Shown: positions 30,140 through 55,976 of the stretch, piece by piece
How the letters are laid out: every line of letters starts with the position of its first letter
Numbering within the stretch: position 1 is the first letter of the stretch
Origin: Podarcis bocagei
Lineage: Eukaryota
Direction: 5' to 3' (one strand)
Length of the DNA stretch: 64,000 bases
Assembly (NCBI GenBank): GCA_964188305.1
Contig: OZ076903.1
Position numbers and translations under genes: made by a program
The notes under the pieces: model-generated
Databases searched by the model: none
Seen by the model: only the letters and a program-made list of their open reading frames with translations
Told to the model about the DNA's origin: nothing

Positions 30140-31563
30140 TTGGATAAGGAATAACTCAGTTACCAAGCCATATGCAATTCAGAAATCGTTCAGATAATGT
30201 ATCTGGTAGAAGTGCATCAAGAGGTATTCCCATTCTAGCAATGCTTTCTAAAGTAGTCTTAAAGTATAATCAAGAATTCTGCTGTGAACTTGTAAAAAAT
30301 ATTTGCAACGCACTTTTTTTTTTTGCTCTGGGCAAAGGAAGCTTTCTGGTGCACTTCATCTGACTAAGCTATTTAAAGATTTTGTTTTAAGGTGGCATCA
30401 ACACTTTACTTCCCTGGCAACTATGTCAACAATGTCTTCCTAGCCTAATAGCCTCTGCCTAACTGAATAACTAAGAGGAAAAATTGCACTCATTACTCCA
30501 ACATCAAGAAAATCTGGACAAAAATAATGAAGTTAAAAATAAAAGCTCACCAGATGAAAATGAATGGCATGAACTATTTTCATTGCTATGCATATACTGG
30601 TGTATGAGAATTTTTATTTCAGTCTTATGATCTCTGTGGTTCTCTTAAAATGTGGGTCATATAATATTACTTACACTTTTACAAATAAAACTGAGCATCA
30701 TTTGTTGTTGTCAAATATGATTCTAATCCTTTATAGTAGAATAACTCTATGACCAGAGTGGCTGGGGGAACCCAGCCAGTTGGGTGGGGTATAAATAATA
30801 AAATTATTATTATAATTAATGAGCAGGTAATGAGTACTGTTCTGCATTCCTCTTGTGATTAAACAATAGCTGCATTTTCTTTCCAAAATGTGTCTTGGCT
30901 TCCTTTTAAAACAGCATCTTAGCTAATATAATGTGATAGTTGTATCTAATCAGTAGAAATGTAAACAAACACTGACTGATGAGAAACCTAACAATGCTGT
31001 ACCAGACAAGGGTTTCTGTATTGTCAACCGATCAGATGGTTCTGGGAAGCCCTCGAGAAAGGCTTGAAAGCAACTGGCTGTAAGTGAACAAATGTCTCTA
31101 CATCAGTAGCACTCCATGAATTTGTCTTTTTATGCCATGGCCATCACCACAGATTGTTGCAATAGATTCTGTGACTTAATTATGAATAAAACTTTTTGTG
31201 TTTGTCACTTTTCCCTAACCTACCAGTTATGAGGAATACCTATTCCAAGCAGTTGGGTGTGGGGGAGGAGGAGAGAGAAATATGAATGTCCACATTCCCC
31301 AGACCACATGCACAACTCTATATAAACTACCATGTTCTGTTTCTGCTTGGTTTCCTTCCCCCACCCACCCATACTAAAAAGTCATTAGCATGGTAGCATT
31401 CCTTCATAGAGAAGGTATTCTGCTGCCTGATCATTTTGACTGCCCTGATTTACATCTCTAAAATATCCTTGTAAACCTGTTACAAGCAGAACAGTACATG
31501 GTAATCCAGACAAATACTTTCCACTGGCTTCCACATAAACTCAGCCAAGGCAACCAGTTGTAG

Positions 31564-32386
31564 TGTGAGGACCCGATCCCCGCTTTGTGGAATGAAGACA
31601 CACGGACACAGTGTATAAGGTTAATGGGCAAGAAAAGGCGACAACTTTATTGATTACAGCAAGTGAGAAGATATTGGCTTAGGCATTGGACCACGACAGA
31701 TTGACTCCACCCACTCGGAGAGGGGTGAGCCTAAAAGGGGGTTTATTCACCAGTAGGTGGAGCCTGTTGATGCTAATACAACTATAAGCTCTCCCCTGAT
31801 GTTACCGAGGGTCGTGCCATGGCCCCACGCCACACAGGCATCAGACAGGATCCACAACTGCCGGATTCCTTTAACGGAATACCCAAATTTGAAGGGGTAG
31901 GCGATGGCCACACCTAGCCCTTCCACACACCAACAACACATTCCAATGCCTAACTGCCAAATACCAAAAAAGTTGTGACGATTGCTACGAGGTAGGCAAA
32001 AAAACCCAAAGGCCTAATGCCAATTGGAAAAATTCCTACCAGGCCCCCTGGGCAACCTGGGCGACCAACCAAAGGTCCATAGCAAGGTCAAGCGAAAAGC
32101 TAAGCCCTAAGCCCTAAGCGAGTAGTGGGTGGGTGACTCGCGACGAGAAGGAGAAAAGTGAGGCGGAATGGCTGGCGTAGCGGTACCTTAAACTGCAAAC
32201 CATGCCCCCTCCAAGCCACCCGGTTGGGCGCTTACCTATGGACATGGTGCGCCAGCCAGGAGAGTGGGGCAGGGGGCATAATGCCCCCTGTGTGACGCAG
32301 AAATCGCGTCCCGCCCACAACACCTCCCCTCTCAGAGGAGGAGAGGCTTTATCCACTTGACTAATGCCAGTGGTGTCATGGCCACA
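31564..32386 (-). mobile_element. LTR-like structured terminal repeat, copy A (solo LTR or Ngaro/DIRS-type repeat unit)
   Basis: TG..CA ends; minus-strand CACCCACCC, GGTAGGAATTTTTCC, TAGCAATCGTCACAACTT, CAATGCCTAAGCCAA and AATAAAGTTGT shared with 54620-55468; no clean TSD. Confidence 0.75.
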
Positions 32387-43500: not shown

Positions 43501-44288
43501 TGCGCGGTGCTTATGACCACAGGGAACTTACCCATTTGTATGGGCTGGCCTGTCTCTCACTGTTATTCTTTGGGGGTTCATGCCCTGCCCCAGTAGTCAA
43601 GTTTCGCTGCTGGGAGGTGGGGCAAGTTGCATAAATAGGAGGCGGAGCCAACAGCAGACAGGCAATCAGCTCAGGAGCTTCACCCACCCAACCCTCCCTT
43701 TGTTTAATGTTTCTTGTTTGCAGGTTAACTTTTTCTTCTTGTTTAGCGGGCGCTGCTACAGTCTTTGGACTGGTTGCTGTTGAAGAGCTGGGAAGAAATT
43801 TCCCTGCATTGTCAGGTTTTGTCTTCCCCGTAGCAATTCATCACAACTTTGGCAGTTTAAGGCCTTGGGCAGAATCCTTTAGTCTTTTCATCCCTAAAAT
43901 GGGGGGGGGCGGGGCGGTGAAGTGGTGACTCATGTCCTCCCACTGCGGCGGCGATTCCAGGTTCCCCTCTTAAAGGGGTTGTCACCCATTTGGGTGTGAC
44001 TGGCCATACACTCAAAGGTTGTCAGTGAACTACCCTGCGTGCGGGGATATGGGGTGGGCTGCCTGCTACACTTACGTCTCGCAGAGCACCCCCATACCCC
44101 ATTTTACCCTGAGGAGCCCCAGTTCCCCCAGGTGGGGGGCTGGGAGGGATACACACCCAATGTCTAAGCCAAGGTCTTCCTACATTGGAGAGTTTAATAA
44201 AGTGGCCAAATTTTAATTCCGTAACACGTTGTCATGAGTCATTATTCCTTTCTGGTGGTCCCTGGAGCGGTCGCCGCCTGGTCACGCA
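43501..44288 (+). mobile_element. LTR-like structured terminal repeat, copy B (divergent subfamily)
   Basis: TGCG..CGCA ends; CATAAATAGG TATA-like at 43630; CACCCACCC; TAGCAATTCATCACAACTTT; CCAATGTCTAAGCCAA; AATAAA 44196-44201. Confidence 0.7.
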
Positions 44289-45562
44289 ATATATACAGCC
44301 ATGTAAGTTGTAGTGCCAGAATTCCTAAGGTACTGGCACACACCTGAGGTCTTTCATGAGTGGATGAATGCTGTGAATTAAAAAATAAAGATACAACTTA
44401 CGGGTGCAAACTCACTCTAAAGCAGATATGGACTCTTTGTCTGCATGAGCAGATGCAAATGAATATTGTGAATGTTACCACTACTTAAGATGGCTGTCTA
44501 TCCCTTTCTGAAATGGTCATCTCATATCCATCCAGTAGCTTTCTGAGTAGACATGGGAAGGGGTAAAATTGTGATACGGAAGAAATCAGTGGGTGCAAGT
44601 GTGTGGTACAAGGTAAACTGCTACACACACAGTGACCTAGCACACAGCCATTGGATATAAAGCAAACATTACATGGCTACTTCTATGACTGAATTGGGTT
44701 TGACATCCACTGTGAGAAGAACCTGGAATCTTGCTTACTTAAATTCAGATTGTTTCAGGGACTTGTACTCTTGCAATTTGTGTTCCCGACTTCGTATATC
44801 TAGAGAGTTGCATGTGGGTGACTAAGTGTGGTGCATAAATGTATCCACAATTTCTCTCTAGACTCTCTAATTAAAGGAGAGGGGGAATACAGTGTATTAA
44901 AATGCATATGGAGCAAAACAAACAAATGATTGAATTAATTGTGTTTAAAAGTGATCAAGATGCTGAAACAATTTTTTTTATTCTTTCCTCCACCCCCCAA
45001 TTTAAGTTTCAATTATGGAGGAAGGACAGGCCTACCTCTATTTACCATGCTGTTTTGTTTTAATTACTATTTTCCCCACCCCTTTTTTAAAATGCCTATG
45101 ATGAATCACAGTCCCCTGTTTTCACTCCAGGTGACTGCCAGACCTGTGTCTTCCAAAGGTGTGCTGGACCCAAGACAATTAAGGCTTTAAAAAGTTATCA
45201 TCGGCGCTTGAATTGTACCTGGAAACAAATTGGTGGAAACAAAACCCAGCATCCCTGTCCATACTGGTTGGTGCTGGAGTTGGGAGTCCAACAACATATG
45301 GAGGGTCACAGGTTCCTAGCCTGAAGATTGGTTCTCTACCCCCTTAGCATGTGGGATTCAAAGCCTAGAATACTGATGTCAAAAATGCTGCACAGAATTG
45401 TGTGTGTGTGTTAAAATGGTGATGATGTAAACTGATTTGTGGCTACACTAATTCTAATGCAGAAAACATTTACCACCACTTTCAGGGCAGATCAGAGCAA
45501 TGCACTCTGTTTGGAACTTTCCTTGAAATTTGAAATTTGTTTGAATATCATAGTTGGTATAG

Positions 45563-54619: not shown

Positions 54620-55468
54620 TGTTTACTGCCATTGCTTCTCCCTGTTTTTTTTTAAGTTCAGTCCCGTCCCACCACCCAGTTAATATTTCAGTAAATGGGA
54701 TCCTCCTATTAGAGGGTCCTGGTTGCGCGCAGGCCCCTGGGACTTTCCCCCATAGGGGTTAGTTGGTGGGAGAGTAGCTAAAAGCCCTGGTCATAGCCCT
54801 TGGATCACGCCAGGCTGTTTAGCCAATCCCCAGAGGGTGGCGTGATCCCAGGGGCTTAAAAGGCGGCAGTGTGACGCAAGTAGGGGCACTTGCATCGTGC
54901 TGCCGAACACACACCCCTCCTTAGAATTAGGTAGTTTCATCTTTTGTCTTTGCTTTGGTTTGGGTCACCTGTTTTGGAACAGGGGCAGGGTAGGAATTTT
55001 TTCCATTTGGCAAATTGACTCTAGCCACTTGGTTTTTGCCTACCCCTTAGCAATCGTCACAACTTGTAAGGTGGCGGTTAGGCATTGGCTCAGTTGGATT
55101 GTGGGGAGGGGAGGTGCGGCCATCACCTGCCCCTCCAGGAACTGGGTATTCCATTAAAGGAATCTGGGGGTCTTGGATCTCGTCTGAAGCCCACTTGAGA
55201 GGCTAGGGCCATGCCAGGACCACAGGAACCCTGGGGTGAGCTTCGGTTGGTCCGCATCGACGTTGCTCCCTTGTTTGGTTTACCCCATTGGACTATCACC
55301 CAGAGAGGTGGAGTCAGTTATAGTCGGAAGTCAATGCGTAAGCCAATACCGCTCACGTGATTGTAATTCAATAAAGTTGTGACCAAAATTTGCCCCGAAA
55401 CTTAAACTAAAATATGTGTCCGGGTGAAGTTATTTTTGGGGGGTGGGGCCTGGGGGCCTTGAGGCACA
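54620..55468 (+). mobile_element. LTR-like structured terminal repeat, copy C
   Basis: CCAAT near 54824; TTAAAAGG TATA-like near 54866; blocks shared with copy A; AATAAA 55370-55375; flanks AAAG/AATG (imperfect). Confidence 0.75.
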
Positions 55469-55976
55469 AATGTGTTGGCATTATATAACAGGACACAGCA
55501 TACATGCTCTCCACCACCCTTAGAAAACCTCTTAATTCCTAGTTTATTTTATTCTTTGGTAGATTTACAAAAAAAATAGAAAAAATAGAAAGGGGCAAGA
55601 TTAGAGACGGATACACAAAGGATTAAGAAAACAGAGACTCCTTGCACTCCTCTCCCAGGGCGGTCCTGCCCTCTGCCTGCACCTCAGAGCTAGAGCGTCA
55701 CACTAAGTTGGGTCTTGGCAGTCCCAACCTCTCCTCCTCCTCATCTGCCCTCCAGCAGCCACTGCAAGCTGCCCAAGGGAGGAGGCTGCCAGCAGCAGCC
55801 GTGGGAAAGCAACAGGATGCTTCCTCTGTGCCATTGCACTGGCTCATCCTCCTTCCCGAGCTTAGCAGCTGAGGAGCTGCTGGCAGGGAAAATCAGAAGC
55901 CAGAATAGCTTTAGGAATTCCAGACCTGTCCCAGGAAAATAGGGATAATTGGAGGGTATGTAACCCCAAAGCTAAG

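Follow-up and report, generated by a model that had tools for sequence, protein, structure and literature searches.

The window analysed here, a 64,000-nucleotide stretch of DNA from Podarcis bocagei (contig OZ076903.1 of assembly GCA_964188305.1), carries on its plus strand a repeat of 775 bases, termed copy C (54695..55469), that begins with ATGGG, ends with CAA and lacks a target duplication. Judged from its sequence, copy C very probably derives from a Ngaro-type tyrosine-recombinase (YR) retrotransposon, of which it is a solo A-U-B remnant. All of its parts are oriented in the plus direction. The promoter repeat A (54695..54906, with a right border placed approximately by homology to intact elements) includes a TATA-like box at 54856..54861, from which a putative start site would lie about 25-30 nt downstream. 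By eye, a hairpin at 54866-54905 surrounds this putative site in copy C, and a similar one is present at the related loci L064 and L071. The spacer U (54907..55071), which is found once per intact element and only between the repeats A2 and B2, contains an ENE-like hairpin (54988..55045) formed by a lower stem (54988-54994 with 55039-55045), two U tracts (54997-55002 and 55033-55037) and an upper CCA/TGG stem, and is followed within U by the 5' arm of an outer helix, P1 (55056..55065). Repeat B (55072..55469, left border approximate) contains the poly(A) signal. An inner helix, PB, closes the B domain by joining 55078..55090 to 55329..55341, and encloses a short conserved hairpin (55148..55163) with a near-invariant six-base loop and covariation at three of its five stem pairs. 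Beyond PB lies a segment (55342..55375) with UGUA (55362-55365) and AAUAAA (55370-55375), then the 3' arm of P1 (55374..55383), which extends over the last two A residues of the hexamer, and, about 40 nt past the hexamer, a GU/U-rich stretch (55415..55437) that is a candidate downstream element.

The family of copy C is large, with 4419 first-look candidates, 40 of which were scored. Target duplications are absent around family copies (the 23 of 30 that have both ends), and in 22 of these 23 the longest duplication is at most 4 nt across 25 end definitions. The three bases that precede the element on its left side are similar to the CAA at its end, with an A at position -2 in 21 of the 23. Absence of a target duplication together with short junction homology is described in passages of PMC7192593 as a signature of YR integration, and the family carries that signature because it has no target duplication and its left flank mimics the terminal CAA. 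The first-pass annotation had regarded the repeat as an LTR-like unit, an assignment that we abandon, since the ends and flanks do not fit an LTR and intact relatives have the layout of Ngaro elements. A solo LTR of the Gypsy or ERV type would have TG...CA ends, not ATGGG...CAA, and the expected 4-6 bp target duplication is missing. An abundant, LTR-looking repeat is thereby reclassified as a collection of Ngaro solos. A known structured RNA was also considered and rejected, as the window has no Rfam match at the gathering score; Rfam searches of three loci returned just sub-threshold miRNA-type hairpins.

Homologous YR proteins are closest in lizards, and one metagenome scan yielded a single distant locus without likeness to A, U or B. 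Pattern searches and a B-only query found no intact or B1 copy of copy C's own subfamily. Specifically, a corrected junction pattern for an intact member gave two matches (one solo and one chance match), whereas neither the B1-type pattern nor the predicted pre-B1 arm of the family gave any. The assignment of copy C therefore rests on 60-80% homology and shared ends.

Relatives with this degree of likeness, which belong to subfamilies other than that of copy C, reveal the arrangement from which solo units derive their parts. In 14 of 20 longer stretches the layout is A1-ORF1-RT/RH-YR-SGNH-B1-A2-U-B2, with A1 identical to A2 and B1 to B2 at 98.7-100%; two of the remaining stretches have only B1 and B2, and four have neither repeat pair. 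A1 measures 212-235 nt, B1 401-436 nt and U 163-168 nt. A search with the YR domain produced 54 matches, and a B homologue lies about 650 nt behind YR in all 30 of the loci fetched. ORF1 encodes a CCCH finger, and the element frames match RVT_1 (E 3e-13) and Phage_integrase (E 1e-6). RNase H motifs are visible by eye at the end of the RT frame, where Pfam gives only E 0.1. The frame stops about 30 residues after RNase H, with no match to a methyltransferase domain, and this absence sets the element apart from PAT and DIRS. A GDSL/SGNH frame after YR scores above the Pfam cut-off in L074 and weakly in L061 and L071.

Several loci depart from this plan. A variant context precedes B1 at 15 of 20 junction loci (L115-L134). 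At L115 (1-2201) the SGNH region has degenerated and contains A-rich repeats as well as additional copies of one helix arm, yet B1-A2-U-B2 is intact; loci of this type possibly represent a young non-autonomous Ngaro family. Two B|A junctions on the same strand, 6.5 kb apart, mark tandem or nested elements at L125 (1-9971), and one element at L203 (443-2707) has three B copies, two of them with the pre-B1 context and 1.2 kb apart. An internally deleted element at L086 (1275-2631) has A fused directly to the pre-B1 hairpin, followed by B1-A2-U-B2, with repeat identities of 99.7-100%. A tandem minisatellite replaces the RT region at L064 (4063-4870), L065, L067 and L080, and these copies keep YR, SGNH and, for the most part of them, repeats that are identical.

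The layout also changes how the distance between the promoter and the poly(A) signal is to be read. The TATA-like box had been placed 500-570 nt before AATAAA, and the measured distances of 514 nt in copy C, about 540 nt in copy A and about 565 nt in copy B agree. The conclusion drawn from them, an unusually long R region, is not supported. In intact elements the ORFs come after A1, and with the TATA-like box close to the right-hand edge of A, the 514-nt 'R' is made up of the last part of A, then U and the greater part of B.

The complementary strings that had drawn attention to this region were all found at the positions originally given. The 5' arm of P1 in copy C, GTCACAACTT at 55056-55065, is the exact complement of 55374-55383 and forms a perfect 10-bp helix, whose 3' arm covers just the last two A residues of AATAAA. 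The 13-mer arms of PB form 11 Watson-Crick pairs, one G-U pair and one G-G mismatch. Copy A (31558..32348), a solo unit of a sister subfamily on the minus strand, has the same helices, as had been proposed, with a perfect 12-bp helix plus ACAACTTT (31641) paired to AAAGTTGT (31969). The B of copy A matches, at 92% identity, a B1 located behind remnants of YR and SGNH (L104). Partial versions had been reported for copy B (43540..44289, plus strand). It is indeed a related solo A-U-B unit with the same end pattern, yet a weak, old and diverged one whose arms have decayed.

Only six of 400 dinucleotide shuffles contained a perfect 10-bp helix spanning at least 240 nt. The folding z-score of the domain is -3.17 in the sense direction, against -2.22 for the antisense strand, and P1 pairs with probabilities of 0.85-1.0, or 0.88-1.0 in five B2 contexts tested. 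The perfect match of P1 is private to copy C (one of 30 family copies), with a U-G pair at that place in 27 of the 30, and the G-G mismatch in PB is likewise private (1/30). Across the 30 copies, selected for general similarity, pairing is possible in 280 of 295 cells of P1 and in 370 of 390 of PB. The complementarity is maintained across subfamilies, and the presence of G-U pairs indicates that the sense RNA is the folded strand. RNAalifold, which the first-pass annotation had recommended for a family alignment, recovers the ENE-like hairpin, P1 and PB unprompted from ten sequences with 63% column identity. Among 41 named pairs 97.1% of cells pair, with a covariation of 0.140 against 0.071 for shuffled alignments, a shuffle that ignores kinship.

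Changes on both sides of a pair occur at two of 13 PB pairs, two of seven pairs in the ENE lower stem and three of five pairs in the B hairpin, and at none of the ten P1 pairs in the ten-sequence alignment. One PB position has four types of Watson-Crick pair among 18 representatives chosen by arm motif, a sample biased for that reason, and P1 shows no covariation in the same biased sample. As the alignments suggest, P1 is almost invariant across the family and PB covaries. Because P1 has no two-sided change, its conservation may reflect primary sequence. When partners for the post-hexamer stretch were ranked across whole elements, the U arm was not among the five strongest in L061, L064 or L071, which argues that P1 depends on PB bringing the two arms near one another.

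U houses both the ENE-like hairpin and P1's 5' arm, which hence occur before B2 only in intact elements. In the hairpin, stems with G-C pairs enclose a U-rich internal loop whose tracts comprise 3-6 U depending on the family; certain young families have short or broken tracts. The hairpin has no match in Rfam. Its lower stem ends 10 nt before P1. Poly(A) tails are usually added 10-30 nt past the hexamer. The first-pass annotation had the poly(A) signal docked beside the hairpin. What survives of this proposal is the predicted proximity: the likely cleavage region and the ENE-like loop would be located at the same end of P1, 10 nt apart.

These features suggest how a split-repeat element might end and protect its RNA. 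As the layout implies, the RNA would run from A1 through B1, the B1|A2 junction and U into B2. Since that junction would hold both of the ends that are otherwise missing, a copyable RNA presumably must pass B1 and end in B2. B1 and B2 are identical and both contain AAUAAA, and thus flanking sequences alone can distinguish them. U would give the ENE-like hairpin and the outer arm of P1 to B2 alone, so stabilisation would fall to the RNA ending in B2, from which alone a whole element can be copied. The helices would fold repeat B away, such that a tail made at the last repeat starts beside the U-rich loop, where a triple helix might form. In one clade, the ORF end would additionally pair over UGUA-AAU at B1 and favour read-through there. 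Snap-back self-priming from P1 was also considered and rejected by reasoning, because the end of U would be lost.

The reading of copy C as a Ngaro solo whose fold would put the B2 tail beside an ENE-like, U-rich loop that likely protects it is the one we marginally favour; the chances seem evenly balanced that the fold both places the B2 poly(A) site by the ENE and stabilises the read-through RNA. The fold in copy C itself is a fossil. A more ambitious version is improbable. It would have two identical stop signals told apart by folding alone, with the ORF end masking B1 and the spacer delivering the B2 tail to a triple-helix pocket 330 nt away, and would also let the A-U-B cassette act on its own as a stabilised 0.5-kb RNA, with the recombinase inserting its circles and thereby making it one of the densest repeats in the genome.

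The helices might instead serve chiefly to choose between the poly(A) signals, with the ORF end silencing B1, U leaving B2 usable and tail capture being secondary. In one clade, the last SGNH codons pair at B1 only with the stretch running from the end of PB to UGUA-AAU, and this ORF-end helix, lying over the signal with a probability near 1.0 in L061, L063 and L077, is what gives the proposal its appeal. In a positional control, the helix ranks best of 2347 ORF windows in L061 and of 1770 in L074. Across 18 B1 copies from this clade its cells are paired in 96.8% of cases, including 28 G-U cells that indicate the sense strand, and its one two-sided change, a G-C/C-G swap, is a single event on the tree. 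The arms also pair better with their own partners than with swapped ones (permutation p 0.011). The duplex reaches -13.7 to -20 kcal/mol in nine of 17 B1 representatives and is intermediate in two, but in the other six, which include the young L064/L071 clade, it is at the level of shuffled sequence (-6.9 +/- 2.8), and no ORF-end helix is present in L064 or L071. Accessibility, computed for 21 of 24 B1/B2 element pairs, speaks against such a choice as well. Opening AAUAAA takes more energy at B1 than at B2 in two of the 21 elements and less in the other 19, and a 16-nt window with UGUA is harder to open at B1 in nine, by more than 2 kcal/mol in two. In L197, half of the hexamer is covered in both contexts. 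Computed accessibility in these 21 elements thus reveals no general switch that turns B1 off and B2 on, and we consider signal choice rather unlikely to be the main role of the helices. The original suggestion that the helix regulates 5' versus 3' polyadenylation is not supported, as A1 is followed by the ORFs and both copies of the signal, B1 and B2, are near the 3' end.

A role apart from the tail would arise if the folded B domain were a recognition or strand-transfer scaffold for the reverse transcriptase or the CCCH protein, with P1 organising priming or template switching. The primer of DIRS-type elements is given as unknown in passages of PMC7192593, the invariant arms and near-invariant hairpin loop resemble protein sites, and the element encodes a CCCH finger. 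However, a scaffold leaves unexplained the U-rich internal loop with its G-C flanks 10 nt from P1, and the G-U bias speaks against minus-strand cDNA as the folded molecule, so that we judge this explanation unlikely. That the pairing has no function and simply survives from an ancient inverted duplication is highly improbable. The missing covariation in P1 and the neutral decay of solos would fit such an origin, but the arms are fixed while the surrounding repeat diverges to 63% column identity, and a relic would hardly show four Watson-Crick pair types at one PB position.

The abundance of solo units bears on whether A-U-B is also a unit in its own right, in which A2 and the solos would make an ENE-protected RNA of about 0.5 kb, and many solos would be small circles inserted by the YR rather than leftovers of recombination. 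A2 carries a promoter because it is identical to A1. All 30 copies retrieved with a B-only query have A and U and lack an ORF. Within 464 kb around the window, 15 B matches have U directly upstream and five do not, and no ORF remnant was found there, although recombination between B1 and B2 should be at least as easy. The density of solo units in this region (L206-L245 and the window) is roughly one per 30 kb. Passages of PMC6681497 leave the mobility of the SIRE elements of Trypanosoma cruzi unresolved, so the same open question exists there. Yet copies with B1 only do exist, as B2 is missing at 17 of 30 B1 loci. An exact B|A junction is absent from 31 of 59 young B1 junctions. An apparent 7:1 solo excess in the youngest families was discarded, the exact-pattern counts for these families being confounded. 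A count of 494:59 mixes families (four of 20 sampled are of the L064/L071 type), and selection against long copies would yield the same excess. Both recombination with loss of long copies and small-circle insertion are possible sources of the solos, and we find an independent A-U-B unit quite unlikely.

RNA reads were sought in four raw runs of related label, 6-12% of each being sampled; none of the RNA runs on record contains the stretch. The 63-89 and 67-456 reads recovered are mostly less than 95% alike and come from other copies. Among the rows shown for the four sampled runs, reads neither cluster at common starts or ends nor carry a loose poly(A) end, so they map no start or poly(A) site, and some reads extend at least 40 nt past the hexamer. 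No solo-unit RNA of about 0.5 kb was seen in these four samples, which might be counted against an independent unit and by itself says nothing for or against it. In runs X23 and X24, one diverged copy has 200-330x strand-specific depth over the ENE region (54982-55065). It resembles the second copy in L024, is read from the strand opposite to the other family reads and is probably old and carried within a host transcript.

The closest parallel in overall plan is the Ngaro type itself. In the passages of PMC9210276 on Xenopus DIRS-53_XT, an A1-ORFs-B1-A2-B2 order with identical repeat pairs is described, as are gag-like, RT/RH, YR and SGNH frames without a methyltransferase, all in common with the elements studied here. 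The latter differ by their unique spacer of about 165 nt with an ENE-like hairpin between A2 and B2, and those passages describe neither a spacer nor an RNA structure for Ngaro. Isolated A..B units resembling copy C are represented by the solo AB repeats of Cafeteria Ngaro elements in passages of PMC8547959, and SIRE of T. cruzi VIPER combines A2, an exclusive inner region of about 30 bp and B2, according to parts of PMC6681497. Compared with these, the inner region here is five times longer and structured, and the solos are dense (at least 15 in 464 kb).

Duplicated poly(A) signals invite comparison with retroviruses. With the HTLV-1 Rex response element, the poly(A) signal occurs twice and the first copy has to be bypassed. 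The HIV-1 poly(A) hairpin, as covered in passages of PMC12789967, presents the same problem, which is shared by the elements described here. Unlike in either virus, no local hairpin is involved, the strand that covers the signal is supplied by sequence beyond the repeat and is not the same at B1 as at B2, and the folded domain precedes the hexamer. The HTLV analogy put forward initially fails on this geometry, because the domain does not lie between AAUAAA and the GU-rich element.

Known ENEs bear on the proposed tail protection. The Tycowski 2012 and 2016 supplements may already include YR-element ENEs. Leaving aside that main ENE survey (Tycowski 2012, 2016), our literature search found no description of an ENE or RNA structure in Ngaro, and no paper describing how a split-repeat retrotransposon ends and protects its RNA; the 3'-end architecture is apparently undescribed. 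The layout offers a direct test, since the two poly(A) signals are identical, their flanks differ and an ENE-like module accompanies only one of them. If the proposal is true, ENEs would be extended to vertebrate tyrosine-recombinase elements, and long-range docking of a tail on an ENE would be demonstrated. Like the hairpin in U, the single-domain ENE of KSHV PAN RNA, as presented in passages of PMC7583470, is a stem-loop with a U-rich internal loop beside G-C pairs. Parts of the review PMC12501189 list ENEs from plant, fungal, slime mould and stickleback elements, and those of transposable elements such as Evade/Copia93 reside near the 3' end of the retroelement RNA, as here. By comparison, the host of the present hairpin is a YR element, its triplex is a prediction, and it is located about 330 nt upstream of AAUAAA, to be brought near by the predicted long-range helices alone.
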